A stretch of 59,620 bases of DNA from positions 1 through 59,620 of IMG/VR virus record IMGVR_UViG_3300009507_000020; one strand, written 5' to 3'. Every line of letters starts with the position of its first letter. The stretch's first letter is position 1. Made by a program: the position numbers and the translations under genes. The notes under the pieces were generated by a model. That model did no database searches. It worked only from the letters and a program-made list of their open reading frames with translations, and had not been told where the DNA came from. The DNA is from a virus. Lineage: Duplodnaviria; Caudoviricetes. Of the stretch, positions 42,160 to 59,620 are shown piece after piece.

Positions 42160-43521
42160 ATGACGACCAGTTCAATAACATCCGACGGCAGAAAGGTAAT
42201 GATCAACCAGTTCAAAAATAGTTTGGACGGTGACAGTGATCGATATTACATTGGTTTATCCAGTAGTGATTCTTCGTCTGCGGGATTACATGATCAAATG
42301 ATGACAAGAAATGAAATGCATTTTGTCAAATCAATTTCTGCAAACAGTTTTGTTGTGGAAACAAACGACTGGATTTCGGGTACTTCTTACAATCAGTACG
42401 ATAATAACGACACAAATCGTTCTAACTTCTATGTTGCCAATAGTAATAGTGAAGTTTTTATGGTCATAGAACAAGGAAAGAATAGTGCAGGTGTTGCGAC
42501 TGGATCAACGGTAGAACCTACTGTCGAAATTGCAACTGCATATAACGGAATACAGAATACATTCCCTACCGGTGACGGGTATCTTTGGAGATATTTGTAC
42601 AGGATGTCTGGTGGTGCTGTAAACAATTTTAAAACATCTGAGTTCATGCCTGTCTCTGTTATTAAGGGTACGGCTAGTATTGCAGAAACTATCGAACAGA
42701 AATCTCTACAGACTAACGCCATCAAAGGAGAACTTCTTGGTGTTGCAATCGTAGACGGTGGGTCAGGTTATCAATTTGTTCCACGGGTAGATATTGAAGG
42801 TAATGGTACCGGTGCAGCATTCTCCGCAACCATTGATGACGGTAAGGTTGTTAAAATTGAATTAGATTCGGACAAGTTCAGCAATCTGCTCCACGGTAGT
42901 GGTTATGACTATGCGAAGATTGTTCCATCCGACTTTACAAGATCGGGCAGTGCAGTATTCAGACCAATCATTGCACCACAAGGTGGTATCAATAAAGATC
43001 CGGTGTCGTCTCTGTGTGCAGGTAAGATCATGTTACAGAACACTATTCAGAACGATGAGGGTTCTACTTTACCTCTCGCAGACCCCGCAAATGATTTTAA
43101 ACAGGTCGTTCTGTTAAGTAATATAACGCAACTGGATTCAACTGCAAAGTACACTAGCAACGTAGGAACTGCGATGCACTCATTCACAGTTAGTTCTGGC
43201 AGCGACATTTTTGATGCAGATGAGATCTTCGTTAGTTCGAGCGGAGCAGGTGCTAAGGGTAAGACTTTTTGGCACGACAACTCAAACAACAGACTGTATT
43301 TTATACAGAATGACTCTACGGGGTTTGGAGAGTTCGAAATTAACACAACAATCACTACAGTGAATACTTCAAAAACAAAGTTCATTGATGCAATTGTTGA
43401 ACCAGATTTCGACAGATATTCGGGTGATTTAATGTACATAAATAACCTCAACAACGCTATACTACGATCAGGCACACAAACCGAAGATTTCCGAATCGTA
43501 ATTGATTTGGGAACAAAGTAA
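42160..43521 (+). CDS. gp8: baseplate wedge subunit
   Basis: W.SGT.Y..YD, FYV.N, DGYLWRYLY, FMPV, YSGD.MY.NN...R...QTED. Confidence 0.85.
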   Translation: MTTSSITSDGRKVMINQFKNSLDGDSDRYYIGLSSSDSSSAGLHDQMMTRNEMHFVKSISANSFVVETNDWISGTSYNQYDNNDTNRSNFYVANSNSEVFMVIEQGKNSAGVATGSTVEPTVEIATAYNGIQNTFPTGDGYLWRYLYRMSGGAVNNFKTSEFMPVSVIKGTASIAETIEQKSLQTNAIKGELLGVAIVDGGSGYQFVPRVDIEGNGTGAAFSATIDDGKVVKIELDSDKFSNLLHGSGYDYAKIVPSDFTRSGSAVFRPIIAPQGGINKDPVSSLCAGKIMLQNTIQNDEGSTLPLADPANDFKQVVLLSNITQLDSTAKYTSNVGTAMHSFTVSSGSDIFDADEIFVSSSGAGAKGKTFWHDNSNNRLYFIQNDSTGFGEFEINTTITTVNTSKTKFIDAIVEPDFDRYSGDLMYINNLNNAILRSGTQTEDFRIVIDLGTK

Positions 43522-43531
43522 AGGGACAAAA

Positions 43532-46500
43532 ATGGCAACTACATTTACATCTGCGACGTTAAGTGGTTCTTATGATGACGATCTCGATCAAGATAAGGGA
43601 TTTCATCAAATACTATTTAACAGTGGTAGGGCACTTCAAGCACGAGAGTTAACTCAACTTCAAAGTCTGATCTATCAAGAGATGGGTCGTTTTGGACGTA
43701 ACATCTTTAAAGAAGGTGCAGCGGTTAGTTCTGGTGGAATGGCAATCAACGCAGCTCACGAGTTTGTCAAGATCGCATCTACTAATGCAGGTTCTGCATT
43801 TGCAAACATTCCTGTCGGTACGGTTTTCAGAGATGACGTTACTGGTCTTGAAGCCAGAGTACTTGAAGTACAACCACGAAACACAGGTTTGGGTTTCACA
43901 TATGATACTTTATATGTCCAATACATCAATACTGATCAATCTGTTGTTGCCGGTCTACCTGATCGTTTCGGTGACAAAGTTACTCTGTTTGATCAGTCCG
44001 GTTCTGGTTACGAGTTAGTAACTGAGACTCCTAATGCATCTGGTCGTGGCGTACGGTTTGACGTTGCAACAGGTGACTTCTTTGTACTAGGTCGATTTGT
44101 AAAAGCAACTACACAAAACCTCATTATAAGTCCATACACCCAATCCTTTACTGGGGCGATTGGATTTAAGGTTGTTCAAGAAGTTATATCTGTATCAGAT
44201 GATGCGTCCTTGTATGATAACAATGGTGGTGCTGTTAATACTGCATCACCCGGCGCAGATCGATATAGAATAAGATTGATTCTATGTGATCATTCAACTA
44301 TCGCAAGCGACGAAACTTTCGTATTTCTTGCCAATGTCGAGAACTCAAAAATTGTTGAGGAAGTCGATGAGGGTGATGCATACAACAAGATTAACGAACT
44401 CATTGCACTACGTACCGAAGAAGAGTCGGGTGACTATATTGTCAACCCATACACGATTCACTTCGAAGATGAGGTTGCAGGTGATTCCTCTTTGGAATTG
44501 ATTGTATCGACCGGTAGTGCATATGTCAATGGTTATCGAGTAGATACTCCATCACCCGTTAAATTAAAAGTCCCACGTCCTCAGACTACAGACAACCGCA
44601 ACAACGACATTGTTCCTATTGAATACGGTAACTATTTTGTTGCAGATTCTGGTCGAGGTCTACCTAATCTGGATATGGCGACAGTCAATCTAAGCACGTC
44701 ACTGACAGATCCAAGTAGTAATACTATCGGTACTGCAAGAATACGTGCGGTAGAAAAAGGATCTACTCTTCCTAACAACGGAACGCACAAGATTTATGTC
44801 TTTGATATCAATGTCGACTCAGATAAAGACCTTACTGATATCAAGTCAATTGGTACTTCCACAACTAACTTATACAAGTTATCCACTGCGGTCAATGGTG
44901 CGGGAACAGACAGTGATGTGAAGTTGTTCAACACACAAGACAACTCCTTGTTGATGCCTTTGACTCAGAATAGACTCCAATCAATATCTGATATCGTTTT
45001 GAAAGTGCAACGACATGTTGGAAGTAAGACAGTTGCGTCAAGTAAGATTGACATCTCTTCTGTATTGGGTGCAGGCGAATCTTTTGTTGACACCAGTAAT
45101 TGGGTTGTTGCGTCTACTACTCGTGGTTTTATTCCACACACAGTCAATGCATCTAATGGTGAGATAACTCTCTCAGACGTTGCTGACGGTGTTGTTCTTG
45201 AAGTGTTGTACTATGTCCAGAAAACTGGTGCAGTACGTACCAAGACTGAATTGACTGGTATCACTGACACGTTGACCAAACAGACAGGATTTGACGTATA
45301 TAACGACGTTGCATACTGTTACTACGAGTTTGATCATGTTGATGTGACAGAACTAGACTCTGTGAGAGCAACTTTCTCTTCTGGTCTTGACATGTTCAAT
45401 AGTTTTATTTTGGACGATGGTCAGAGAGACAACTTCTATCAACGTGCACGTCTGATCCACAATGGGGAAGACAGTGCACCCAACAACTTGTATGTTAACT
45501 ATAAGAGATTGCGCCACAACAACGATGGTGACTTCTTTGCCGCGTCATCTTACAACACGATAAACTATAGGGATATACCTACTCACGTAAATCAGACTGG
45601 TAATGAAGTAAATCTATTTAATTACTTGGACTTCCGTTCTGATAATGACAATGGTACGTTTGCCAATATCAATTTCCTTCCTAAGAACGGTGACAATGTT
45701 ACCGCAGACATTAGTTACTACCTGCCCCGTGCAGATAAGTTATTGTTGACTCAAGAAGGTGAGTTGCAGTTGTTGATGGGTAACCAAGCAGCAGATCCAC
45801 AGTTCAAACCTACGCCAGAAAATGCGTTAGAGTTGTACAAGATAAAAATGAATCCTAATACGTTAAATGGTCAGGATCTATCTTTCGATCCAGTAGAACA
45901 TAGACATTATACTATGAAGGATATATCTAACCTTGAGGATAAGGTTGATGCATTATCAGAATCTACAGCTTTATCTATACTAGAGTTACGTAACCTTTTA
46001 AGTCCTTCTTTGGATAGTGCGGGAGAAGAAAGACTCGCGATTGGTAATCAATCAGACGATCAATCAGATCACGATACGTCAGACACTGAGAACGTAGATT
46101 ATTCTGCGTCACTAGATCCAGATGCCCAGATTATTTACCCTAAAGCGGCAGAAGAGAACATAAGACTTATGTTCAACAATTCATTGTCTACGGGTGTCAC
46201 TAAAATAGGTGACAACATATACTTGAACCATGATAGCGCAGAGTGGGCATTCCAGTCACTTGCATCTGATCATATTAAAGTCAACCCGTTTGGACATGTA
46301 CAGAATACCGGTACTCTCAAGATGTCACCGTCTTCTGACGAATGGAAAGATACTCAGACAAATGCAAACCGTGCAATTGAAGGTTCTGAAAACTTATCCA
46401 CCAATCAAGCGTTTTTATGGAACTCTTGGCAGTGGAACTGGCAGGGTCGTGTCGGTCTTATAACTCGATCGATTAAGTCCGCTGCAATTCGCAAACGATA

Positions 46501-48802
46501 CGCTGGTAGGACTGTCGATCTTGCACTCATTCCATTCATACGTTCACGTAAGGTCTTCTTCCACGCGAAGGGATTGAAACCCAATACTAGATTCACTCCA
46601 TTCTTTGATGGTATGAAAGTATCCGAGTGGTGTCGTGAAGAGTCGACGTTTGTTCGTTGGTCTGATCGTACCGATGGTTGGGGTAACCGTTATGGATGGA
46701 ACATTGCTGCTCACCCACAGGGATCTTCTGATTTAATCTCTGATGCAAACGGTGAGATCATTGGTTCCTACTTCATACCTTCTGTCCGTGCAGTTCGCGA
46801 AAAGGCAATTAAGAAGTGGGGTAAGAAAGCCGGTGCCAAGTACTTCACTCAACGTAGATTCCGTGCAGGTGTAAGAGAGTTCATGTTGCTAGACATTGAC
46901 AAACCCGATTGGGGTGAAGCAGGGTCTAAAGCATTCTGTTACTATGCAGCAATGGGTATCGCGATACACTCTTTGAATATTTGGAAGTATCTCCGTTATC
47001 CAGATTCCCCACATCCTTATTCATGGTTGAGTAAGAGGGCACAGACTCGCCTTACTAAAGAACAGAAGGAAAGACTGGACGCGGTATCTGCGGGTAATGT
47101 TTTGATAACAGAACCTAAAGTATCTGGTCGATTCGGTACCAATCAGATTCCATTAACTACAACAGAACTGCGTAACATTGACAACAAAAACACAATGTCT
47201 ACAGTTTTGTCAGACTACATTGGTGTGGATCTCAATCACCAAGCGTCTACTGAAGTTAATCCTATTGCACCACCTGAAAATCCATTGTCACAGACGTTTT
47301 ATGTCGACAACCCATATGGATTGGTATTGACCAAACTTCAGTTATACTTCCGTTCGAAAGATACGGGTAACCTTCCCGTGTCCATACACATACGTCCAGT
47401 AGAGAATGGTAAACCTTCTCAAAACATTATCGTGCCAGATTCTCATGTATTTAAGAATCCCGGCGATGTTGATGCGATTGGTACTACACCTATTCTCTCT
47501 ACTGTACAGTCTAGACCTACAACTTTTGAGTTTGATGAACCAATTCATCTACAACCTTGGAAGAGATATGCGATTGTAGTATCATCACAGTCAACTGAAT
47601 ATGAGTTGTTCAGTGCAACCGCAGGTAATCCTGTGTTAGGTTCTTCGGTCAAACGTGTAACTACACAACCAATTCCTGGCACTCTGTTCCTACCACAGAA
47701 CGGTACTAACTGGTTGGAGACTAAGAATCAAGACCTCATGTATCGTCTGTACCGTGCGAAGTTTAACCAAGGTGGTGGTTCTTTGATCTTGAACAACGAA
47801 GATCTTGCTCCTCGTGAGTTAGAGGACAATCCAATCTTAACTACTGCATTGTCTAATCGTGTATTTGTTAAACATATGTGTCACGGTCTGCGAGTAGGAG
47901 ATATTGCAAACCTAGACAGTGCGGAAGGATTCTTCGGTAACACTGCGGCAGACTTTAATGGTAACCACACAGTACAAGAAGTTGATGTACATGGTTATAC
48001 CATTGATGTTGACAGTGCAACGTTCTCTGGGTTCGGTGGTGGAGATAAGATTCGGTCTCAAGGTAACGTTGTCTTTACGACCGCAAATCTTATATTAGAG
48101 AATGCAATACCACGATCTACCTCAATTGATACATCCGCGAAGTTTACTTCTGGATCAAACATTAGTGGTGGAGAAACTCGATTCGTGCAAGATGCACAAT
48201 ATGCACGTATCACCCCTGAAGAAAATACTACTTTTGATTCTCCGAAAACAATCTATAATGCTGCATCCGAAACTTTAAACCTAGGTGCGGGTGTGAGATC
48301 TGCATACTTTAAGGTTGATTTCAAGTCTGGAGATGATTATGTTTCACCGATCATCGACCTACAGAGATCTTCTTTGGTTGCTGCGGGTTACTGTATAGAT
48401 GATCCTTCAATAACACCTCACCTATATCCAGTCTCAGAGACTGCACCTACTGGTGGTACTACTGCATCGAAGCACATTACTAAAGTAGTTGTGTTGCCGG
48501 AACCTGCTGTTGGTATTGATGCACGTGGCGATTGTTGGTTACCTGACAGTTCAGACGTAGACTTCTACTATAGAACTGCACAAGCGGACGAAGATATTAC
48601 TCTCCAACCTTGGATACTTCAAGAACCGAGAGAACCTCTTCCACGGAGAAATGACGGTAACTATAACCGTGCAGAGTATCTTGCGGGTGGTCAGAATGGT
48701 ACATTGAAACCATTCAATCAAGCGCAAACTAAATGGGTTATGAAAGCAGGTAGTATTGCCCCCGCAATTAAAAACCTTGCGATATCGTTTTTAGCGCATT
48801 AA
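43532..48802 (+). CDS. large virion structural protein (VrlC/DUF4815-like)
   Basis: YDDD......F..ILF..GRALQARELTQLQS, PGADRY, RT.EESGDY, AYV.GY, PFIRSR, PLSQTF; start placed at ATG 43532. Confidence 0.85.
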   Translation: MATTFTSATLSGSYDDDLDQDKGFHQILFNSGRALQARELTQLQSLIYQEMGRFGRNIFKEGAAVSSGGMAINAAHEFVKIASTNAGSAFANIPVGTVFRDDVTGLEARVLEVQPRNTGLGFTYDTLYVQYINTDQSVVAGLPDRFGDKVTLFDQSGSGYELVTETPNASGRGVRFDVATGDFFVLGRFVKATTQNLIISPYTQSFTGAIGFKVVQEVISVSDDASLYDNNGGAVNTASPGADRYRIRLILCDHSTIASDETFVFLANVENSKIVEEVDEGDAYNKINELIALRTEEESGDYIVNPYTIHFEDEVAGDSSLELIVSTGSAYVNGYRVDTPSPVKLKVPRPQTTDNRNNDIVPIEYGNYFVADSGRGLPNLDMATVNLSTSLTDPSSNTIGTARIRAVEKGSTLPNNGTHKIYVFDINVDSDKDLTDIKSIGTSTTNLYKLSTAVNGAGTDSDVKLFNTQDNSLLMPLTQNRLQSISDIVLKVQRHVGSKTVASSKIDISSVLGAGESFVDTSNWVVASTTRGFIPHTVNASNGEITLSDVADGVVLEVLYYVQKTGAVRTKTELTGITDTLTKQTGFDVYNDVAYCYYEFDHVDVTELDSVRATFSSGLDMFNSFILDDGQRDNFYQRARLIHNGEDSAPNNLYVNYKRLRHNNDGDFFAASSYNTINYRDIPTHVNQTGNEVNLFNYLDFRSDNDNGTFANINFLPKNGDNVTADISYYLPRADKLLLTQEGELQLLMGNQAADPQFKPTPENALELYKIKMNPNTLNGQDLSFDPVEHRHYTMKDISNLEDKVDALSESTALSILELRNLLSPSLDSAGEERLAIGNQSDDQSDHDTSDTENVDYSASLDPDAQIIYPKAAEENIRLMFNNSLSTGVTKIGDNIYLNHDSAEWAFQSLASDHIKVNPFGHVQNTGTLKMSPSSDEWKDTQTNANRAIEGSENLSTNQAFLWNSWQWNWQGRVGLITRSIKSAAIRKRYAGRTVDLALIPFIRSRKVFFHAKGLKPNTRFTPFFDGMKVSEWCREESTFVRWSDRTDGWGNRYGWNIAAHPQGSSDLISDANGEIIGSYFIPSVRAVREKAIKKWGKKAGAKYFTQRRFRAGVREFMLLDIDKPDWGEAGSKAFCYYAAMGIAIHSLNIWKYLRYPDSPHPYSWLSKRAQTRLTKEQKERLDAVSAGNVLITEPKVSGRFGTNQIPLTTTELRNIDNKNTMSTVLSDYIGVDLNHQASTEVNPIAPPENPLSQTFYVDNPYGLVLTKLQLYFRSKDTGNLPVSIHIRPVENGKPSQNIIVPDSHVFKNPGDVDAIGTTPILSTVQSRPTTFEFDEPIHLQPWKRYAIVVSSQSTEYELFSATAGNPVLGSSVKRVTTQPIPGTLFLPQNGTNWLETKNQDLMYRLYRAKFNQGGGSLILNNEDLAPRELEDNPILTTALSNRVFVKHMCHGLRVGDIANLDSAEGFFGNTAADFNGNHTVQEVDVHGYTIDVDSATFSGFGGGDKIRSQGNVVFTTANLILENAIPRSTSIDTSAKFTSGSNISGGETRFVQDAQYARITPEENTTFDSPKTIYNAASETLNLGAGVRSAYFKVDFKSGDDYVSPIIDLQRSSLVAAGYCIDDPSITPHLYPVSETAPTGGTTASKHITKVVVLPEPAVGIDARGDCWLPDSSDVDFYYRTAQADEDITLQPWILQEPREPLPRRNDGNYNRAEYLAGGQNGTLKPFNQAQTKWVMKAGSIAPAIKNLAISFLAH

Positions 48803-49084: not shown

Positions 49085-52000
49085 ATGTCATACAGACCCC
49101 TAAAAAGTTTATCTGGTGGTGAACTTCAAGAGTTTACTCTTGCAGATGAAGACTCAATCGCCTATCAGGCGGGACTTCACCTTGCGGGTATGGATTCTTC
49201 TGACACGTCTGCATTGTCTAGATACGATCAAGGTAGTGAGTTAGTAGGTACATTCAATAACACCTTCTTTGATGAAACATCCAACGACGACCCTCTGGTT
49301 CTTTCTACAGAGTTTCAGGTTGTATCGACTTCCAATGTCACTAACGGTGTGCATACTATCACTTCTTCGGGTGGTGGTTTACCTCAAACCGTTTATATTG
49401 GTGACACATTAGAACTCAACATTGTACTGAACGCAACTGAAGTCAATGGTGGCGGGTTCGAAACTATTTCTGTTAACGCGACCACTGCGGGTAGCGCAAC
49501 ATTCACCGAGACTATTAATGGAACTCCTGCCCCAACTGTTATTGCGGGTGATGGTTCTATTACATGGCAAGACTTTGTAGATCCCACACTTAGTGGTGAG
49601 TATCGAGGAATCTATCGTTACACGTTGACTTCGACTGGGTCTATCAACATCTCTGTGCAATCAAACACGGTTGACCAAAACAACTCAACTAATGCGGCAG
49701 ATCTAGCGGTAACACTACCCACTATTGAAGTACAAGAGACACGTCCGCCTAGTAGTGTGGAAACTGAAACAGATTTGTTCCAGAGTCCTGCTGCGGATCT
49801 TCCTACTGGTGTTTTAAAAAGAAACCCAATATACTGGCAGACTCAACCACAGGGTCTAAAAGAAATGTCCGACGCAGAGTTGGATATTCTTTGTACTAAG
49901 TTTGCCCGTAAGATTGTAAACAACGAACTTCCTGGCACCTTCCGTCTATCAGATGGTTCGCCTGGATCTGGTTATTTTAAGTTTATTGAAAACATGTTCA
50001 CCGATACGAGAGGTGACGGTACCAATAACTATTATCATATATGGATGAAGGGTTCAAGTACCCCTATTCCCGCTGATCGAAAACCGATGTCCATCTTCCG
50101 TTATAACGGTGTCTTTGCTGGTTTGAAACAAATGTCAGACCCCGAGATACAGTATACCTTTGGTGAACGTGTAAAACAGTTGATCATGACTACTGGTATT
50201 GGTCAGTATCAACTAAGGTCATCATCTCAGGGTACACCAACTTCGCTTGGTACATGGGCAGCACGTGGCACGGCACTTGACACTAGAAGAACATTCATTG
50301 ATGATCCCGGCTATACTGGTCAGGCACCATTTGATACAAATTATACTGGTTCTTACACCCCAGATTACAATACCACTTTCGTTGGTAACTACGAACAGAA
50401 CTATTCATCTGAGTTCGTCGGTAATTACATAGGTTCGTTTATCTCTTTATACACTGGTGACTATGCAGAAGGTTATACCGGTGCGTATGAGAGCGATTTT
50501 GCAAAGAATTACTCCGGTAACTTTGAAAAGACATACGTCGACAATGTCTATTCGGGTAACTTTACACTAGGTTATACTGGTGATTATACGGGTGCAGATG
50601 TAACAGAACAGTTTTCCAACGTATATACTGGTACAGATGTAAGTGAAAACTACTCTTCAATCTATGTTGAAGAAGAATATACAGGTAACTACGGGTCTGA
50701 CTATACAGGTGAATATGAAGGTGATTTTAGTTCTACCTTTCTTGCAAACTATGCAGACCAAGAATACATCTCCGACTACGAAGCCATCTTTACTGGTGAC
50801 TACCAGTCAATATACACCTCACAGTATACTGGAGAGTACGAAGCACTTCTATACGAAACTTCATACAGTGAAGATTTTGTTACAAACTATTTGACTGATT
50901 TCGTTAGAGATTACACCGGTAACTATACTGGTGATTACGAAAGAACAGATGTCACAACCTTTACAGGTGAGTATGCAGGTGACACTCAAGAAACTTACAC
51001 AGGTGATTACACTGGTACGATCGTTGAGTTGTATACCGGTGAATACGTACGTCAGATCTCAGAGACTTACACCGGTGAGTATGGACGTGTTGACGAAGAG
51101 TTGTACACTGGTGATTACGAAGGTGATATCACAGAGACTTATACCGGAGACTATACCCGTGAAACGCCTGTGGTTTATACTGGCGATTACGAACGTGCAG
51201 ATCCTGAAGTCTACACTGGTAACTATAACTCTGCGATAGAAGAACAGTACACCGGAGATTACGAGAGAACTCAAGAAGACAGTTACACTGGATTGTATTC
51301 AGGTGATATACAAGAAGACTACACCGGAGATTACGAGAGAGAAGACGATGAGATCTATGAAGGTCAATACGTTCGTGAGATCCCAGAGAACTACACCGGT
51401 GAATATACTTCAGAAATCATCGAGATTTATAGTGGCAATTACGAGAGAACCCAAGTAGACACTTACACGGGTGATTACGAACGTGCAGATCCTGACACAT
51501 TTACAGGCGAATATGGTCGTATAGACGAGACTAGTTACACCGGTGATTATGAGAGAGCTGACTCAACTTTATTTGCTGGTGCATATGAGGGTGATGTTCT
51601 AGAACCCTACACTGGTGAATACGGTGGTACTATTTTAGAAACATACTCCGGTGATTATACTGGTGAAGTGCCTGAAGAATATATTGGATCTTATATTGGA
51701 TTGAATCAACGCACTTTCTCGGGTAACTATACCGGTATTCCTACAGAACAATACACTGGTATCTATTCTGGTGGTGTTTCTGAAACATATAGTTCTCTAT
51801 ACACTGGTGAGGCACTCGAAGACTACTCTGGAGATTACACAGGTGAGGCACTCGAAGACTACACTGGAGATTATACTGGTGAGATTGCAGAAGACTACAC
51901 CGGTGAGTATGAGTCTCAAATTGCAGAAGACTACACCGGTGATTATGAAGGTATTATTGATGAAACCTATACCGGCAACTATACTGGTGAGATCTCAGAA

Positions 52001-55000
52001 AATTATACTGCACAATATACTGGTGAAATAGAAGAACCGTACATCGGTGAATATACTGGTGCGATCGCAGAAAACTATACTGGCCCTTACGAAGGTATCA
52101 TCATTGAACCTTATACCGGTGAATATACCGGTGAAGTTGCAGAGGGTTACACTGGCGATTATGGTGGTGAAGCACTAGAGACTTACACTGGAGATTATAC
52201 TCGTGTTACTCTTGTCGACTACTCGGGTAACTACGAACGTACAGACGTTGAGAACTATGCCGGTAATTACGAAAGAACCCAAGTAGACACATACACCGGC
52301 GAATATGGTCGTACCACCGAAACCACATATACTGGGGACTACGAAAGAAACCAAGTAGACGTATACACTGGTAACTATGAACGTGTACAAACAGACGGAT
52401 TTACGGGTGACTACGAACGTGTGCAGGTAGACGTATACACAGGTAACTATGTGCGAGATGACGGCACTACGTTCTCTGGTGATTACACAGGTGCGCCTGG
52501 CGAGAATTACTCCGGTGATTATACTGGTGCTCCCGCAGAACCTTACTCAGGTGACTATGAAAGAGCAGATCCAACTAATTTTACTGGTGATTACGGTGGC
52601 GATGTAGTTGAAAACTATACTGGTTCCTATACACGTACTCAAGCAGATTCTTACTCTGGCAATTATACAGGTGCTCCCGCAGAAACTTATACTGGTGACT
52701 ATGAACGTGATCAGACCGATCCATACACCGGTAACTATACAGGTTCAATAGAAGAAGGGTATACCGGAAACTATGATCGGACTGAAATAGAACCATACAC
52801 CGGTGATTACATAGGTGAAGTTTTACAGACCTACACTGGTAACTATAACGTGGGTTATGTGGGTACCTACGTAGGTAACTACACGGGTGTTGCAATAGAA
52901 GAATATACTGGTGATTATACTGGTGCACCCGTAGAGAACTATCAGGGTCAATATGCTGGTACTACGCTAGAAACCTATACTGGTAACTATACTGGCGTTC
53001 CTACCGAACCTTACACTGGTGGATATGCTGGTGATATTATTGAAACTTACACTGGTGATTATACAGGTGCTCCTGCTACTCCTTTCACAGGAAACTATAC
53101 TGGTGCGCCTGGTGAGAACTACTCTGGCGATTATACCGGTATTCCTGTTGAACCTTATACTGGTGGGTATCAAGGTGTTGTTGGTGAGAACTACACAGGT
53201 AACTATACCGGATCCCCCGCAGAGAATTACACTGGTAACTACACTGGTGCTCCCGCAGAGAACTACACTGGTGAATATACAGGTGCGGTTGCAGAAACAT
53301 ACACCGGTGATTATGAAGGTGGTGCGTTAGAAACCTACACCGGTAACTATCAACGTATTCAAGTAGAAACGTATAGTGGTAACTACACACGTATTCAAGC
53401 AGACACTTACACTGGTAACTACACACGTGTTCAAACTGATGCCTACACTGGTAACTACACTCGTGATGCAAGTGAAACATACACTGGTAACTATGCAGGT
53501 GCAGTACAAGAGACTTATACCGGTAATTATGAAGGCGGTGCAGCAGAAACTTATACCGGTGACTACACTGGTGGTGCAGCAGAACCATATTCGGGAAATT
53601 ATACCGGTGTACCCACAGAGAGTTATACTGGCCCTTATACTGGACAGGTAACAGAAAACTACACCGGAAATTATGAAGGTCAGGTCACTGAAAGTTACAG
53701 TGGTGATTATGCGGGTGCAGTACAAGAGACCTATACTGGTGGTTATGAACGTTCTCAAGTAACACCATTTACGGGTAACTATGTAGGCGAAGTACAAGAA
53801 ACGTACACGGGTTCTTACACACGTACAACTAACGAAGCATATACTGGAGATTTCGCTCGAGATGAGTTAGAAGAATATGTTTCTTCCTACACTCGTGTTG
53901 GGGGTGCATCATACATCCAAGCCGGTGGATCATATATTGGGAACATTACAGGGAGTCAGCTCTCAATAAGACACCACGGTGGTTCATCTTGGCATGTAAT
54001 GAAGTCAGGTTCGAGTACGATCACCTATTCTGCATTATATACTGGGACAGTAATACAAAGAATAACCTCTGGTGGCACTGTCGTCACAGAAGTTTCGACC
54101 ACTAGTGGCCCAGTCAATGGAACCTTTACTGCCAACCAAGGCGACAAGATTGTTTCAAATGGGCCAGATTATCCTATTCATATATTCGTTCAGAATTACG
54201 GTCAAGCAGTTGTACCCGAATCATTAGCGGGCGAAGACTTTCAGGGTTATATGAATAGATATGAACCCGGCACTCTCCACTTCTATTCTAAACATGAAGC
54301 TCGTGTAAAGATCTTCAATCCTGGCAATGCGAATGGTCGTGGATACGATGACCAATCCAACCTATTAATGGAGTTTGAGAAGTGGCACTCACTTGGTGCA
54401 GGAGCTCTGCCAGGTTTTGCTCAGAACGGTGACGGTAACAGTCGTATCATTGATGACTCTCCGAAAGGTCAGGATATTGTCTGGGATGTATCTAACCAAG
54501 ACGCAGACTCAAACGCAGACGGTGGTTGGAACGCTTCTCAAGTATCGATTGATTCAACTAAAAAGTATCGTTTTTCTACATGGGTAAGACGTAAAGTGAA
54601 GGGTAATGGTCACTTTTACTTGGGTACCCGTGCATTCAATAGTGGTGGTACTGTCCTTGCCATGCCACGAAGAGTGGCTGGATCTACAACTACAAACCCG
54701 TACTTTGAAGTCAACGGCAACTACAACGAATGGGGTGGGTCTTCAACTGAGTGGTTCCTTGTTGTTGGTCACGTATGGCCCGAAGGATCTGGCACCGGTG
54801 CGGTAGATACTGAATCTGGTATCTACAACACGTCTGGTACAAAAGTTGATACCATTGAACAAGATTACTTATGGCCAACAGGAACAGTAAAAACTTACCA
54901 CCGTGCTTTCTTGTACTACTCGACGGACACCACTACTAATCAACAGTTCTGGGAACCTCGTCTTGACGACACTACTAATCCTAGTTGTCCCTCTGTAGCG

Positions 55001-58000
55001 GACATGATTAGTTATGGTACTTGGGATAGTGTAGTTGAATTGCCTGGCGGTACTAACACTGTTACTTCACACACAATGAGTAGTACGACCGGATTCTTTA
55101 ACTTTCACTCAAACAGACCTATTATTGCTACTTCTGAAGGTACGGGTAGTATTGATTTATCGATGGTACCACCTACTTCTAATGTTGGTGAAAGGATTTA
55201 TCATCGTCGTGCGTACACTGCTGGTAGTAGATCAAATACTGCTGCGAGTGGAATAGACAACGGTAATCAGGTTTCGTTTCACGACTCTTCTCGTATGTCA
55301 CACACTGAGATTGGTGATGGGGCTGGTGGTAATAACTGTTGGGGTTTACCAGAAAGATTTATGTCTAACACATACTCATGGGGTCAAGCACTTCGTGATT
55401 ATGTGATTGTAATGCCATCTACTGGTTATGTTAGGATTTCAAGTTGGAATGGTTCTGCTTGGACAGAACACGTGACACACTTCAGTTCTGGTTCTGCGGA
55501 CAGTCCTACTTATATATTGCGTACTGGTAACAACGGATTCAACACAACCGGTAGCACTGTCGCAGGTAACACCACTAACTTTAACTCGAATACTTTGTGG
55601 AAGTTTGAAGGTACAACCAATTTCTATCTTGCTGTCAACGATCAGAGTGACGACGAAGAAACCTTATTGGGTTGGCAGTCTTCTCTTGAAGACGCTGTTT
55701 ACACTACAAATCAATTCACCGGTAACTATACGCGTGATGCACAAGAGACATACAGCGGTGACTATGCAGGTGGAGTTCAAGAAACCTATACCGGTAACTA
55801 TACCCGTGTTCAAACAAACACATTTGCTGGCAACTATACCGGAGCCCCCGCAGAACCTTACACAGGCACTTATGAAGGTGTGATTACCGAACCTTATACC
55901 GGTAGTTATGCTGGTGCAGTACAAGAAGGTTATACTGGCCCATATACTGGTGCGCCTGGCGAGAACTATGTAGGTTCTTATACAGGTGTAATTGCAGAAA
56001 ACTACGTCGGTGGTTATGATCGTGCTGCACAACAAGGATATACCGGTACATACCAAGGCGCAGTCCAAGAGACTTACACCGGTAACTATGCACGTGTTCA
56101 ACTACAATCATACACAGGTAACTATACTGGCGCGCCTGCTGAAAACTACGTAGGATCATACGCACGTGATCAAGTAACACCATACACAGGTAACTATACT
56201 GGTGCTCCCGCAGAGAACTATGTAGGTAACTATACTGGTGCGCCTGCTGAGAACTATGCAGGTAACTATGCACGTACTCAAGTGACACCATTTACCGGTG
56301 ATTATGCAGGTGATGTACAAGAAACTTATTCAGGTAACTACCAACGTGATCAAACCAATGTTTATTCTGGTGACTATGCGGGTAATCCAGGCGAGAACTA
56401 TGTCGGTTCTTACGGTGGTTCAGTCCAAGAAACCTACACTGGTACATATCAAGGTGCGGTTCAAGAGACATACAGCGGTAACTATGCCGGTGGAGTTCAA
56501 GAAACCTATACCGGTAACTACCAACGTGATCAAACCAATGTTTACACGGGTAACTATGCACGTACTCAAGTGACACCATTTACCGGTGACTATGCACGTG
56601 ATCAACTACAACCATATACTGGTTCTTACGGTGGTGCAGTTCAAGAGACCTATACAGGTAACTACACTGGTGCTCCCGCTGAGAACTATGTGGGATCATA
56701 TTCACGTTCTGCACAAGAAACCTATACCGGTAACTACGCTGGTGCACCCGTAGAAAACTATGTTGGTTCCTATACTCGTGTTCAAGGAACAACATATACC
56801 GGTAACTACACTGGTGCACCCGCAGAAAACTATGTAGGTAGTTATGTCCGTGATGCACAACAAGGATATACTGGTACCTATCAGGGTGTTTCGGGTGAAG
56901 CATACACCGGAGATTATGGTGGTACTGCGTCAGAACTCTTCACCGGATCTTACGTAGGTAGTTATGTTGCTGTCGGAAATAGCACCCCCGCAGGTGGTTT
57001 TGTGGGTGCTGGCGGATATGAAAGTGGAGGTAGTGGTGGTACTAACTATCAAGGCACTTATGCTGGTCTCACTTCAGGTGTTTTTGAAGGGGATCTGCCC
57101 GGTGGGCCAGGCGAACCAGAGATTTACTTGGGGACAAGTAATGTAAACTATACCGGTAGTTATATTGGTGGAGAAACTGGCACAAACACTTACGTTGGCC
57201 CCGCTGTAACATACACCGGAAACTTCGTCGGTGCTGCACAACCCTATAATGCGGCTAATTATGTGAGCAACGATGGGCCACAGTATACAGCTTTTCAACA
57301 CGAGTGGAAGGTGTCGACAGCGGGTGGGTCTAACAACATCTTTATCTATTGGCCAAATGGTCTTTGGGGTACTACAACTGGTACTTTCTCGACTACATCC
57401 ACAACGATTAATGGACAAAGCTTCACTCGTGGTAGTTTTGTGGGTTTCGCTAGTGGTTTTGTTTCTTATTATTTGACCGCGACCAATGTATCGTTTGGTG
57501 CTACTTACGTTGGTGGTGGTGGTACTTACGTCGACAATTTCGTTTCAGGTACCGAGACAACTTACAACAGTGGTGGTGCAACCTACGTAGGTAACTATCA
57601 AGGTGCCTATCAAGGCACTTATGCTGGTGGTTACCAACGTATTCAAGCAACACCTTTCATCGGTGACTACGTACGTGATTCACAACAAGGATATACAGGA
57701 ACGTATCAAGGTGCGGTTCAAGAAACCTATACCGGTAACTATGCAAGAGACCAAGCTGCTGCGTACACGGGTAACTATCAAGGTGATGTACAAGAAACTT
57801 ATGCAGGTAACTATGGACGTACACAACTAGAGAATTATGTCGGTTCTTACGGTGGTGCAGTCCAAGAGACTTATACCGGTAACTATGCACGTGCTCAAGC
57901 AGAAAACTATGTAGGTAGTTACTCTCGTTCTGCACAACAGGCATACACCGGTAACTACGTTGGTGTTCCTCTTGAAACATACTCTGGTGACTATGCAGGT

Positions 58001-59620
58001 AATCCTGGCGAGAACTATACAGGTAACTACACTGGTGCTCCCGCAGAGAACTATGTAGGATCATATGCACGTACACAACTACAACCATACGTAGGGTCAT
58101 ATGTCCGTGATGCACAACAATCTTATACCGGTAGTTACGCTCGTTCTGCACAAGAAACATACACCGGTAATTATGCACGTGTTCAAATACAACCATATAC
58201 AGGTAACTACACAGGTGCACCCGCAGAAAACTATGTTGGTTCCTATTCACGTACACAAATTGATACCTATGCAGGCAACTATGCAGGTGCTCCCGCAGAG
58301 AACTATGCTGGTAACTATACACGTATTGCAGCAGAGACCTATACCGGTAACTATACACGTGATCAAGTCGATACGTACGGCGGTAACTATGCCGGTGGAG
58401 TACAAGAAACATACACGGGTAACTATGCACGTGATCAGGTAGACACTTACACTGGCGATTATGCGGGTTCTCCTGCCGAGAACTATGTAGGTAGTTATGT
58501 CCGTGATGCACAACAAGGATATACTGGATCTTATGTGGGTGTTATTAGTGAAACATACACCGGAAACTATGACCGCGCTGCACAAGAGACTTATACCGGT
58601 AACTACACACGTACTCAAGAAGAGGGTTACACTGGTAGTTACGACCGTACTGAGAATCAATCCTACACGGGTAATTATGTACGTGCTTCACAAGAGACAT
58701 ACGCTGGTAACTATACACGGGAACAAGTAGAATCCTACACGGGTGACTACACAGGTGCACCCGCAGAAAACTATGTTGGTTCATATGCACGTACTCAAGT
58801 AACACCTTATACTGGTACCTATCAGGGAGTTGTTGCAGAAAACTTCACCGGAGACTATACTGGTGCGGTGGACGAAACGTATGTTGGTAACTATGCAGGT
58901 ACTGTTTCTGTTCAGTTTGCTGGTCAGTACGAAGGCGCGGTTCAAGAAAGTTATACAGGATCGTACGAACGTGATGACGCGGCTGCTTACGGTGGTAACT
59001 ATGTAGGTGTCGTTTCAGAGAGTTACACTGGTAGTTATGCCCGTACACAGATTCAAACCTATACTGGTAACTACACACGTATTCAAGCAGAGAATTATGC
59101 GGGTAACTACGAACGAACCCAAGAACAGGGGTTCACTGGTGACTACGAGAGAACTCAGGTTGAAAACTATGTTGGTAACTACCAGAGAACTCAAGCAGAG
59201 AATTATGTAGGTAACTATGTACGTATTCAAGCAGAGAATTATGTAGGTAGTTATTCACGCACCCAAGCAGAGAATTATGTTGGTAACTACACTGCGGACG
59301 CACTAGAAACGTACACTGGTGATTATACTGGTTCTCCTGCCGAGAACTATACTGGTGAATATACTGGTGCACCCGTAGAAAACTACTCAGGGAACTATAC
59401 TGGTGCGCCTGGCGAGAACTATACGGGTAACTATACTCGTGTTGACGGAACTCAGTTTACTGGTAACTATACTCGTATTCAATCAGAGGGTTATACTGGC
59501 AACTATGAACGTGATCAAACCGATGTCTATACCGGTAACTATACTCGTGATCAAGTAGATACCTTTACCGGTAGTTATACACGTGACTCCGGAGAAACAT
59601 TCACTGGTGACTACGCGAGA
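49085..59620 (+). CDS. giant Tyr/Thr/Gly repeat virion fibre-like protein, 3'-truncated (at least 3512 aa), not in ORF track
   Basis: Hand-translated frame from ATG 49085 (MSYRPLKSLSGGELQEF...) has no stop up to the last codon (...ETFTGDYAR). Confidence 0.93.
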   Translation, partial: MSYRPLKSLSGGELQEFTLADEDSIAYQAGLHLAGMDSSDTSALSRYDQGSELVGTFNNTFFDETSNDDPLVLSTEFQVVSTSNVTNGVHTITSSGGGLPQTVYIGDTLELNIVLNATEVNGGGFETISVNATTAGSATFTETINGTPAPTVIAGDGSITWQDFVDPTLSGEYRGIYRYTLTSTGSINISVQSNTVDQNNSTNAADLAVTLPTIEVQETRPPSSVETETDLFQSPAADLPTGVLKRNPIYWQTQPQGLKEMSDAELDILCTKFARKIVNNELPGTFRLSDGSPGSGYFKFIENMFTDTRGDGTNNYYHIWMKGSSTPIPADRKPMSIFRYNGVFAGLKQMSDPEIQYTFGERVKQLIMTTGIGQYQLRSSSQGTPTSLGTWAARGTALDTRRTFIDDPGYTGQAPFDTNYTGSYTPDYNTTFVGNYEQNYSSEFVGNYIGSFISLYTGDYAEGYTGAYESDFAKNYSGNFEKTYVDNVYSGNFTLGYTGDYTGADVTEQFSNVYTGTDVSENYSSIYVEEEYTGNYGSDYTGEYEGDFSSTFLANYADQEYISDYEAIFTGDYQSIYTSQYTGEYEALLYETSYSEDFVTNYLTDFVRDYTGNYTGDYERTDVTTFTGEYAGDTQETYTGDYTGTIVELYTGEYVRQISETYTGEYGRVDEELYTGDYEGDITETYTGDYTRETPVVYTGDYERADPEVYTGNYNSAIEEQYTGDYERTQEDSYTGLYSGDIQEDYTGDYEREDDEIYEGQYVREIPENYTGEYTSEIIEIYSGNYERTQVDTYTGDYERADPDTFTGEYGRIDETSYTGDYERADSTLFAGAYEGDVLEPYTGEYGGTILETYSGDYTGEVPEEYIGSYIGLNQRTFSGNYTGIPTEQYTGIYSGGVSETYSSLYTGEALEDYSGDYTGEALEDYTGDYTGEIAEDYTGEYESQIAEDYTGDYEGIIDETYTGNYTGEISENYTAQYTGEIEEPYIGEYTGAIAENYTGPYEGIIIEPYTGEYTGEVAEGYTGDYGGEALETYTGDYTRVTLVDYSGNYERTDVENYAGNYERTQVDTYTGEYGRTTETTYTGDYERNQVDVYTGNYERVQTDGFTGDYERVQVDVYTGNYVRDDGTTFSGDYTGAPGENYSGDYTGAPAEPYSGDYERADPTNFTGDYGGDVVENYTGSYTRTQADSYSGNYTGAPAETYTGDYERDQTDPYTGNYTGSIEEGYTGNYDRTEIEPYTGDYIGEVLQTYTGNYNVGYVGTYVGNYTGVAIEEYTGDYTGAPVENYQGQYAGTTLETYTGNYTGVPTEPYTGGYAGDIIETYTGDYTGAPATPFTGNYTGAPGENYSGDYTGIPVEPYTGGYQGVVGENYTGNYTGSPAENYTGNYTGAPAENYTGEYTGAVAETYTGDYEGGALETYTGNYQRIQVETYSGNYTRIQADTYTGNYTRVQTDAYTGNYTRDASETYTGNYAGAVQETYTGNYEGGAAETYTGDYTGGAAEPYSGNYTGVPTESYTGPYTGQVTENYTGNYEGQVTESYSGDYAGAVQETYTGGYERSQVTPFTGNYVGEVQETYTGSYTRTTNEAYTGDFARDELEEYVSSYTRVGGASYIQAGGSYIGNITGSQLSIRHHGGSSWHVMKSGSSTITYSALYTGTVIQRITSGGTVVTEVSTTSGPVNGTFTANQGDKIVSNGPDYPIHIFVQNYGQAVVPESLAGEDFQGYMNRYEPGTLHFYSKHEARVKIFNPGNANGRGYDDQSNLLMEFEKWHSLGAGALPGFAQNGDGNSRIIDDSPKGQDIVWDVSNQDADSNADGGWNASQVSIDSTKKYRFSTWVRRKVKGNGHFYLGTRAFNSGGTVLAMPRRVAGSTTTNPYFEVNGNYNEWGGSSTEWFLVVGHVWPEGSGTGAVDTESGIYNTSGTKVDTIEQDYLWPTGTVKTYHRAFLYYSTDTTTNQQFWEPRLDDTTNPSCPSVADMISYGTWDSVVELPGGTNTVTSHTMSSTTGFFNFHSNRPIIATSEGTGSIDLSMVPPTSNVGERIYHRRAYTAGSRSNTAASGIDNGNQVSFHDSSRMSHTEIGDGAGGNNCWGLPERFMSNTYSWGQALRDYVIVMPSTGYVRISSWNGSAWTEHVTHFSSGSADSPTYILRTGNNGFNTTGSTVAGNTTNFNSNTLWKFEGTTNFYLAVNDQSDDEETLLGWQSSLEDAVYTTNQFTGNYTRDAQETYSGDYAGGVQETYTGNYTRVQTNTFAGNYTGAPAEPYTGTYEGVITEPYTGSYAGAVQEGYTGPYTGAPGENYVGSYTGVIAENYVGGYDRAAQQGYTGTYQGAVQETYTGNYARVQLQSYTGNYTGAPAENYVGSYARDQVTPYTGNYTGAPAENYVGNYTGAPAENYAGNYARTQVTPFTGDYAGDVQETYSGNYQRDQTNVYSGDYAGNPGENYVGSYGGSVQETYTGTYQGAVQETYSGNYAGGVQETYTGNYQRDQTNVYTGNYARTQVTPFTGDYARDQLQPYTGSYGGAVQETYTGNYTGAPAENYVGSYSRSAQETYTGNYAGAPVENYVGSYTRVQGTTYTGNYTGAPAENYVGSYVRDAQQGYTGTYQGVSGEAYTGDYGGTASELFTGSYVGSYVAVGNSTPAGGFVGAGGYESGGSGGTNYQGTYAGLTSGVFEGDLPGGPGEPEIYLGTSNVNYTGSYIGGETGTNTYVGPAVTYTGNFVGAAQPYNAANYVSNDGPQYTAFQHEWKVSTAGGSNNIFIYWPNGLWGTTTGTFSTTSTTINGQSFTRGSFVGFASGFVSYYLTATNVSFGATYVGGGGTYVDNFVSGTETTYNSGGATYVGNYQGAYQGTYAGGYQRIQATPFIGDYVRDSQQGYTGTYQGAVQETYTGNYARDQAAAYTGNYQGDVQETYAGNYGRTQLENYVGSYGGAVQETYTGNYARAQAENYVGSYSRSAQQAYTGNYVGVPLETYSGDYAGNPGENYTGNYTGAPAENYVGSYARTQLQPYVGSYVRDAQQSYTGSYARSAQETYTGNYARVQIQPYTGNYTGAPAENYVGSYSRTQIDTYAGNYAGAPAENYAGNYTRIAAETYTGNYTRDQVDTYGGNYAGGVQETYTGNYARDQVDTYTGDYAGSPAENYVGSYVRDAQQGYTGSYVGVISETYTGNYDRAAQETYTGNYTRTQEEGYTGSYDRTENQSYTGNYVRASQETYAGNYTREQVESYTGDYTGAPAENYVGSYARTQVTPYTGTYQGVVAENFTGDYTGAVDETYVGNYAGTVSVQFAGQYEGAVQESYTGSYERDDAAAYGGNYVGVVSESYTGSYARTQIQTYTGNYTRIQAENYAGNYERTQEQGFTGDYERTQVENYVGNYQRTQAENYVGNYVRIQAENYVGSYSRTQAENYVGNYTADALETYTGDYTGSPAENYTGEYTGAPVENYSGNYTGAPGENYTGNYTRVDGTQFTGNYTRIQSEGYTGNYERDQTDVYTGNYTRDQVDTFTGSYTRDSGETFTGDYAR
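50924..53911 (+). repeat. coding repeat block A: 83 units of 36 bp / 12 aa
   Basis: Strict 36-nt register from YTGDYERTDVTT to YVSSYTRVGGAS. Confidence 0.93.
55715..56938 (+). repeat. coding repeat block B: 34 units of 36 bp / 12 aa
   Basis: FTGNYTRDAQET ... YTGDYGGTASEL. Confidence 0.93.
57620..59620 (+). repeat. coding repeat block C: 56 units (last one partial) of 36 bp / 12 aa
   Basis: YAGGYQRIQATP ... FTGDYAR, running off the window. Confidence 0.93.

Follow-up and report, generated by a model that had tools for sequence, protein, structure and literature searches.

The window analysed here is a 59,620-nucleotide (nt) stretch of viral DNA, positions 1 to 59,620 of IMG/VR record IMGVR_UViG_3300009507_000020, from a marine T4-like myophage. 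Its last gene is a giant open reading frame (ORF) of a fibre family (49085..59620), open over 3512 codons and cut off at its 3' end by the end of the contig. Much of the encoded protein is built of 12-residue repeat units in three arrays, A, B and C, and the units of array C, taken in reverse order, complement those of array B and then those of array A. An insert of 601 amino acids (aa) lies between arrays A and B and interrupts one arm of this mirror arrangement without shifting its register. We conclude that the product is very probably a fold-back fibre, the two halves of which run antiparallel and pair unit by unit, with an adhesin cassette bulged out and mounted on its side. All coordinates are those of the window, and the giant ORF and each of its parts described below lie on the + strand.

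Repeat arrays of the giant fibre-like protein

Self-comparison of the protein gives an identity of 0.31 at lags of 12, 24 and 36 residues; at other lags it is about 0.05, apart from weaker peaks at multiples of 4. Arrays were delimited by anchoring on Y-x-G-x-Y, which yields a 12-residue unit of the form YTGNY-x-[R/G]-xxxE-x. Array A contains 83 units (aa 614-1609; 50924..53911), array B contains 35 (aa 2211-2630; 55715..56974) and array C contains 56 units and 7 further residues (aa 2834-3512; 57584..59620). Arrays B and C are separated by a Gly/Tyr-rich turn or tip domain of 203 aa (aa 2631-2833; 56975..57583), which stands at the centre of the mirror symmetry. The stem base is a stretch of degenerate Tyr-rich repeats of 4, 8 or 12 residues (aa 421-613; 50345..50923) that precedes array A.

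The units are of two main kinds. Residue 7 is Arg in 79 units (typically YTGNYARTQVTP), and 90 of the remaining 95 have Gly at this position (typically YTGNYTGAPAEN or ..GAVQET). The arms are devoid of His, Cys, Lys, Trp and Met; there is no His and no HxH motif in the 2095 arm residues of the window, and a single His in the 2832 arm residues of P0007, the complete homologue described below. Net charges are -156 for array A, -24 for array B and -40 for array C. Bulk charge complementarity was considered as a pairing principle and rejected, as all arms are net acidic. We also note a gradient of charge along the fibre, array A being most acidic near the base and arrays B and C, near the tip, carrying about -0.7 per unit.

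Database comparisons place the repeats in no described family. No Pfam family matches at E values up to 0.1, whether the query is array A, B or C or the C-terminal 875 aa of P0007; array B matches no Protein Data Bank (PDB) chain at E values up to 1, and PHROG yields no family for the insert, the tip region or the first 472 aa of the protein. The tip domain has no match in the ESM Atlas; it is 78% identical to that of P0007 and 34% identical to that of a second homologue, P0008, and a related motif is present at the centre of the protein of locus L007.

Mirror complementarity of the two arms

Each unit was typed by residue 7, as Arg/Lys or not. In the register that sets unit Bi opposite C(36-i), so that B1-B35 of the ascending strand of the distal stem face C35-C1, 34 of 35 pairs are of opposite type. 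The register extends as Ai opposite C(119-i), with A62-A83 facing C57-C36, and strict Arg against Gly is then seen in 55 of 57 pairs; the two exceptions are B35/C1 (Gly/Gly) and C48, in which Ala stands opposite Arg. With whole units scored as Arg or non-Arg, 55 of the 56 pairs join opposite types and Arg/Arg does not occur (binomial P 1.5e-14). The mirror register ranks first among 230 parallel and antiparallel registers, the others having a mean of 0.53 and a maximum of 0.90, and the observed complementarity is reached by none of 2000 unit shuffles (shuffle maximum 0.88).

The residue numbers of paired units add up to 5465 for B/C pairs and to 4864 for A/C pairs. The difference, 601, is exactly the length of the insert (aa 1610-2210; 53912..55714), so that the register passes the insert with a shift of zero units. 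A preliminary description, made from the letters of the window, had placed a non-repeat segment between A83 and B1 with the opposite arm continuous (C34 facing B1 and C35 facing A83), and had read it as looped out with the register unshifted. Its coordinates are exact, the segment is the sole long non-repeat stretch between two runs of units, and both the facing relation and the unshifted register are borne out, the former as C35/B1 and C36/A83 because our numbering of array C starts at a degenerate unit at aa 2834 and runs one above the earlier one. Array C, the descending strand, is unbroken opposite the insert. Units C35-C37 (aa 3242-3277; 58808..58915; YTGTYQGVVAEN, FTGDYTGAVDET, YVGNYAGTVSVQ) face B1, A83 and A82, and probably make up a platform opposite the bulge.

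Inverted repeats in the DNA of the giant gene amount to seven imperfect pairs of 18-32 nt. A DNA palindrome was considered as the source of the mirror pattern and rejected, because these inverted repeats are so short and imperfect.

A separate feature of the distal stem is that the type strings of B6-B35 (55775-56974) and C1-C30 (57584-58663) are each near-palindromic. The parallel register of these two segments, with 27 of 30 pairs opposite, is the second best of the 230. The distal stem has an approximate dyad about rung 15-16, which may reflect packing of stem against stem or the history of duplication.

Homologues and relocation of the insert

A search of viral contigs with the insert identified two loci, L003 and L002. 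The L003 protein, P0007, is a complete homologue of 4484 aa with an 86% identical insert in the same place as in the window. The L002 protein, P0008, is a 3'-open, 62% identical homologue of 4598 aa with a 600-aa cassette at 63% identity. It had been stated before the homologue search that the units absent from the window, C58-C118, should complement A61-A1, and P0007 has this arrangement: its units A1-A83 lie opposite aa 4239-3255, and 83 of the 84 pairs are complementary. Its distal stem is complementary in 34 of 36 pairs, and the whole protein in 116 of 118, with no Arg/Arg pair (P 1e-30). P0007 is complementary along its whole length, and the entire protein therefore reads as one mirror-complementary hairpin, with the N-terminal domain and a conserved C-terminal tail mapping to the same end. 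The P0007 counterpart of the degenerate stretch at aa 421-613 faces aa 4251-4430, with the register kept and without the Arg/Gly code.

A different layout is seen in P0008, which consists of an N-arm of 143 units, the tip domain, 37 units, the cassette (aa 2978-3577) and at least 85 further units. Distal to the cassette, the 37 units face the last 37 of the N-arm, with 36 of 37 pairs complementary; proximal to it, complementarity is found in 83 of 85 pairs formed with the next N-arm units, and the register sums on its two sides differ by exactly 600. The whole protein has 119 complementary pairs out of 122 and no Arg/Arg (P 3e-29). The cassette of P0008 is thus on the descending strand, 37 rungs from the tip as against 35 in the window, again with zero shift.

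The units around the insert have moved with it. On the strand that bears the insert, the window has YTGDFARDELEE and YVSSYTRVGGAS (units A82-A83; 53840..53911), the insert and FTGNYTRDAQET, and P0008 has YVGDFARIEEEG, YISSYEREGGTA, the insert and FTGSYERSAQEG, with the two units before and the one after conserved. The two units that face the insert are also conserved, FTGDYTGAVDET and YVGNYAGTVSVQ in the window corresponding to FTGNYTGAINEE and YVGNYAGTIIID in the N-arm of P0008, at distances from the insert of 1644 residues in one protein and 1092 in the other. As flanks and facing units have changed arm together with the insert, a two-stranded module has reversed its orientation in the stem. 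The preliminary description had proposed looking among homologues for loss or displacement of the insert while complementarity is kept; the insert is relocated in P0008, and it is absent from P0003-P0006, in which the N-terminal domain is 37-56% identical. In these comparisons the cassette acts as a portable module plugged in between units.

The arms themselves have changed in a concerted manner. Among 110 aligned unit positions in the N-arms of P0007 and P0008 the type is the same at 89, and at all 21 that differ the partner unit has switched too (21/21). P0008 also has extra blocks of 13 and 14 units, each with a complementary counterpart on its other arm.

We also note an irregular patch of 4-residue repeats at A54-A55 on the N-arm (52832-52903; YTGNYNKNYAG...). 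In both homologues a patch of this type has a similar irregular patch opposite it on the C-arm, at aa 3591-3614 of P0007 and aa 3866-3889 of P0008, and the paired patches resemble a conserved symmetric 'internal loop' in the stem.

Residue covariation and proposed ladder geometry

Mutual information was calculated over 235 pairs for combinations of a position a in the Arg unit with a position b in the Gly unit, and it peaks at a+b=14 and a+b=12, at even positions. The strongest combinations are R4-G10 (z 26.6), R6-G6 (18.3), R10-G4 (17.1), R10-G2 (16.7), R8-G4 (13.8) and R6-G8 (13.7), z-scores that are inflated by the duplication kinship of the units, the informative part being which positions covary. 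In the window, Ser4 stands opposite Gln10 in 16 of 18 cases and Asn4 opposite Ala10 in 19 of 30 (and opposite Gln10 in none of the 30); Val2 is opposite Thr12 in 14 of 15 and Gln10 opposite Ser/Thr4 in 11 of 11. Directly opposite residues together with one-sided diagonal neighbours, symmetric about position 7, form the pattern that would be expected of an antiparallel sheet.

An AlphaFold2 (AF2) model of the tip hairpin with 12 rungs per side has a mean predicted local distance difference test score (pLDDT) of 40, with 50-64 in the arms. At this low confidence the arms are modelled as strands of 8-10 residues with a 3-residue break every 12 residues.

The 601-residue insert

The insert is a three-domain cassette. 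A search of the full library with it returned 1234 matches at E values up to 0.001, which resolve three parts. Insert residues 1-150 have few relatives (for example P0010, at 78% identity), residues 150-368, corresponding to domain 2, account for most of the matches and are often N-terminal in proteins of about 440 aa, and residues 372-600, corresponding to domain 3, have separate relatives including P0072, P0094, P0099 and P0107, at 39-42% identity.

Domain 1 (about aa 1633-1734; 53981..54286) is a small beta domain according to the strands of an AF2 model of the insert, which was built from an alignment of 45 sequences, with pLDDT of 56-90 over the block. Domain 2 (about aa 1757-1977; 54353..55015) is a beta-jellyroll resembling carbohydrate-binding module (CBM) families 4, 22 and 16, with pLDDT mostly 85-98 and about 90 over model residues 160-380. 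Foldseek comparison of domain 2 with the PDB finds the tandem CBM22 structure 4xup (E 2.8e-6), the CBM4-2 entries 1k42 and 2y6j with template modelling (TM) scores, relative to the target, of 0.58-0.62, and CBM16 at 0.60. The jellyroll is thus common to domain 2 and these entries (1k42, 2y6j and 4xup; E 2.8e-6 to 1e-4), whereas sequence identity to them is only 10-14%. Domain 3 (about aa 1981-2209; 55025..55711) has a distinct set of homologues and forms a domain family of its own; it is modelled with pLDDT below 50, as are both termini of the insert, and its best score against the ESM Atlas, 0.88, is below the usable level. No CBM model matched the insert in a Pfam scan, which returned a sub-threshold DUF2510 match only (15 bits; the cut-off is 24).

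In four of eight scanned relatives (one with domain 2, one with domains 2 and 3 and two with domain 3), the shared part is followed by a lectin-type Laminin_G_3 domain; two of the eight have no Pfam match. With its CBM-like fold and its association with Laminin_G_3, the cassette is best guessed to bind a glycan, a role suggested by fold and domain company. The preliminary description had proposed a functional module plugged into the fibre between units, and this proposal gains support both from relocation of the insert with its flanks and from the CBM-like jellyroll of domain 2, which makes the function plausible. The unshifted pairing suggests that the termini of the insert are adjacent in space. 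A complex prediction for the insert with five flanking units per side against the ten facing C units gave a score of 0.00, without controls, and is not used here.

Proposed fibre architecture and alternatives

In the model we favour, the chain would leave the N-terminal attachment domain, run as one strand of a ladder to the tip domain and return antiparallel as the second strand, its conserved tail ending beside the N-terminal domain; the N-terminal motif and C-terminal tail conserved in all complete members would fit two ends that meet. Arrays A and B would pair with array C and its absent continuation, probably as a beta-ladder. A binary code at position 7 would set the register, with Arg opposite Gly and rarely opposite Ser or Ala; Arg/Arg is never seen among the position 7 pairs and Gly/Gly almost never, and this rule could fix the register over about 120 rungs. 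Second-layer pairs between positions 4 and 10 (Ser:Gln, Asn:Ala) and positions 2 and 12 (Val:Thr, Thr:Asn) would reinforce it. The cassette would exit and re-enter between two consecutive units, with the opposite strand and its two atypical units bridging the gap, and the cassette, its flanks and the two specialised facing units would together constitute a two-stranded module that can be used in either orientation. The most likely role of this module would be to present a carbohydrate-binding (adhesin) head at the fibre's side, 35-37 rungs away from the tip. If other fibres of the T4 type are a guide, a trimer of hairpins would be expected rather than a lone ribbon.

A more far-reaching reading, which seems to us possible though not quite probable, is that the family is the protein equivalent of a nucleic-acid duplex, in which an encoded pairing code zips the halves of a chain of about 4500 residues into an antiparallel ladder of about 120 rungs by fitting an Arg knob to a Gly hole. 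As part of the same reading, evolution would edit the ladder in the manner of RNA stems, by compensatory flips, by matched insertions and by two-stranded modules of either orientation.

Several observations weigh against the fold-back model. Confidence in the AF2 tip hairpin is low (mean pLDDT 40), the arms being known from sequence alone, and the magnitude of the covariation is exaggerated by kinship among the units, as stated above. Both arms are net acidic, so that bulk charge does not drive the pairing. A bare two-stranded ribbon with about 1600 residues per strand would extend up to about 0.5 micrometre and is hard to credit without oligomerisation or supercoiling. The gene in the window is incomplete, and the pairing of A1-A61 relies on a homologue that is 86-88% identical. 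Glycan binding, finally, is suggested by the modelled fold alone, with no Pfam CBM match.

Among the alternatives, it is unlikely that the insert is mainly a mechanical knee or hinge, similar to the T4 kneecap, that splits a stiff stem and is not ligand-binding cargo. Its distance from the tip is fixed at 35 or 37 rungs in three proteins, the units that face it are atypical in lacking the usual Glu11 and reading VSVQ or IIID, and T4 long fibres do have a knee, all of which would suit a hinge. However, domain 2 is a widespread CBM-fold module found also in proteins of about 440 aa beside lectin-type domains, and relatives of the giant protein do without the cassette; moreover, mechanical and binding roles are compatible with each other.

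Pairing between chains, either in an antiparallel dimer or with strands swapped within a trimer, is a little less likely still. In that case the bulge formed by the insert would belong to an intermolecular duplex. The mirror complementarity of one sequence cannot separate a hairpin from an antiparallel duplex, as with a palindromic RNA, and phage fibres tend to be trimeric with their chains interwoven; T4 gp34 and gp37 are trimers. A simple antiparallel dimer, however, would have attachment domains at both ends and the tip domain mid-way. The tip domain is exactly at the centre of symmetry, and the N-terminal domain and C-terminal tail are at the same end. Swapping within a trimer of hairpins may occur, and would leave the bulge reading intact.

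It is highly improbable that the arms do not pair physically and that the mirror pattern is a by-product of repeat duplication or of a nucleic-acid palindrome, for although the units clearly arose by repeated duplication and their type strings are in part near-palindromic, with 27 of 30 pairs opposite in a parallel register, no DNA inverted repeat exceeds 32 nt, a reverse-complement copy would lose the Y-x-G-x-Y frame, and the 21 of 21 compensatory switches, the matched blocks and the co-transfer of facing units together need selection on contact between the arms.

Genome context

The giant gene is located downstream of a cluster of baseplate wedge and hub genes, at the end of the 59.6-kb contig. 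PHROG matches in the window include a tail tube cap, a tail protein, a hub/lysozyme and two baseplate wedge subunits. The best relative of the gp6-like wedge protein is in Phage C48C1 (40% identity), followed by those of Pelagibacter, Methylophilales and Synechococcus T4-like phages at 32-34% identity. Between the baseplate wedge genes and the giant gene is a gene encoding a 1766-aa protein (43502-48802) with matches to DUF4815 (E 1.7e-47) and phrog_358 (E 5.7e-292), and a DUF4815/phrog_358 gene also precedes the homologous giant gene in L003, L006, L007 and L009.

The contig stops inside array C, at position 59620, probably through an assembly break in the repeats. Judged by P0007, about 970 codons of the gene are absent, and the final 60 nt of the window have no exact match in the viral contigs searched.

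The N-terminal conserved domain of the giant protein (aa 1-420; 49085..50344), recognised by blastp to the family, is presumed to be the end that attaches to the virion or baseplate. It is 88% identical to that of P0007, 77% to P0008, 56% to P0003 and P0004 and 37% to P0005, with partial blastp matches to C48C1 and P0006.

Other members of the family

The family (P0001-P0008, L007 and L010) shares an N-terminal motif, RPLK..G.LQEF..E.Y.AY, of which the window copy is at 49085-49220. The complete members (P0002-P0007, L007 and L010) end in ETYTLYVRV[AD] or RID, and the N- and C-termini of the family may together close the hairpin at its base as a single domain.

When the pair matrix derived from P0007 and P0008 is applied to P0003 and P0004, the register 615 to 2412 is the best of 205, with a modest margin over other in-phase registers, which is consistent with pairing and is not proof of it. 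A generic antidiagonal scan (Arg:Gly and aromatic:aromatic) was dropped, as it failed on the positive control P0007, in which Gly3 pairs with Arg in the wrong phases.

Insert domain 2 occurs alone between arrays in the protein of Phage C48C1 (L001:3460-13503). In this protein, a stretch of about 75 residues at aa ~2047-2160, which takes in the end of the CBM-like domain together with the first repeat units, is present twice in succession, the copies seemingly identical by eye; either the gene has recently undergone an internal duplication or the doubling is an artefact of assembly. Several small globular domains (about 100-200 aa, by eye) lie between short arrays in the C-terminal half of the C48C1 protein.

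Locus L010 encodes tandem paralogues of about 961 aa (L010:6167-9061) and about 1749 aa (L010:9113-14359), with the conserved termini and a basic, C48C1-like code. The 1749-aa protein also has insert domain 2 alone between arrays, as seen by eye in the translation. In the 961-aa paralogue the register about the GPKG turn is not the best; the best registers, with 16-17 Arg:Gly and one Arg:Arg pair, centre about 30 residues later, and are suggestive only.

A complete member of 3237 aa without the Arg code is encoded at L007:2828-12571. On the N-side of its tip there is a 29-residue super-repeat with a five-residue motif (type YVDDQY), and on the C-side a 28-residue super-repeat with a four-residue motif (type FEGQY). 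Each motif occurs in 34 copies on its own side, with 5 and 8 copies on the wrong side. The two arms of the L007 protein, as read from these motifs, match in number by a different code, and the additional residue that each super-repeat has on one strand could represent a regular beta-bulge.

Comparison with known systems

The closest structural precedent appears to be the needle of T4 gp37 (D10/D11). A published description gives the D10 domain as residues 811-881 and 1010-1026, segments before and after the needle, and places seven iron atoms bound to His residues in the needle (PMC6957217). In both systems the chain of a T4-type fibre would reach the receptor-binding tip and return; in the protein described here this appears at the level of sequence complementarity (55 of 56, 116 of 118 and 119 of 122 pairs). 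The excursion in gp37 is about 130 residues as against about 4000 here, some 30 times shorter. The iron-binding His-x-His motifs of gp37 are not present in the arms, gp37 and the giant protein have no sequence or Pfam similarity, and that description reports neither a unit-by-unit Arg/Gly code nor a bulged cassette for gp37. T4 gp34 has been likened to 'beads on a stick', with globular domains that interrupt a thin fibre shaft (PMC3004832). The three parallel chains of the T4 fibres all pass through each bead, whereas the cassette here would interrupt one of two antiparallel strands and leave the other continuous.

The arrangement also resembles an RNA stem-loop with a bulge, in its mirror complementarity, compensatory double changes, matched insertions and the looping out of one strand. 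This is an analogy only, as the pairs here are 12-residue peptide units with an Arg/Gly contact.

SMC, Rad50 and MukB proteins have antiparallel intramolecular coiled-coil arms that fold back at a hinge or hook, so that the termini meet at the base, and local interruptions of the arms are tolerated. The likeness lies in the fold-back topology and the long pairing of two halves. Those proteins, however, have alpha-helical heptads and ATPase heads and act on DNA, whereas the present units are of Tyr, Gly and Thr, are predicted to be beta and are encoded in a virion gene cluster.

The hypothetical protein WJE88074.1 is a family member from an isolated and fully sequenced phage, Phage C48C1 (OQ984149, Kyanoviridae), and has in common with the giant protein its N-terminal domain (44% identity), insert domain 2 (55%) and the ETYTLYVRVA tail. 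It differs in having a basic Arg-rich code, 4-residue sub-repeats, several small globular domains and only domain 2 of the insert. Full-text searches of the openly accessible literature returned no paper that describes this family, its 12-residue repeat or an Arg/Gly mirror code, and 'C48C1' appears there in an unrelated paper only. A fold-back topology is already known among fibres, and there is a substantial chance that the architecture described here merits a separate category.

Phage fibres decide host range, and the giant fibre genes of marine T4-like phages are unannotated. In this family, the neighbouring residues of more than 1500 positions would follow from sequence alone, which provides a contact map ahead of any structure. 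It suggests a fibre design in which one chain is zipped to itself by an Arg/Gly rule and carries ligand-binding cassettes as bulges, a design that would account for the growth, shrinkage and module swaps of such genes without loss of the fold, and predicts where these can occur. The claim is directly testable, as a family member is present in a phage with a complete genome on record (C48C1). With its register set by a two-letter code the fibre is also a candidate scaffold for protein engineering, and if the duplex-like reading is true it would represent a new fibrous protein architecture, a natural programmable scaffold that displays domains at set distances.

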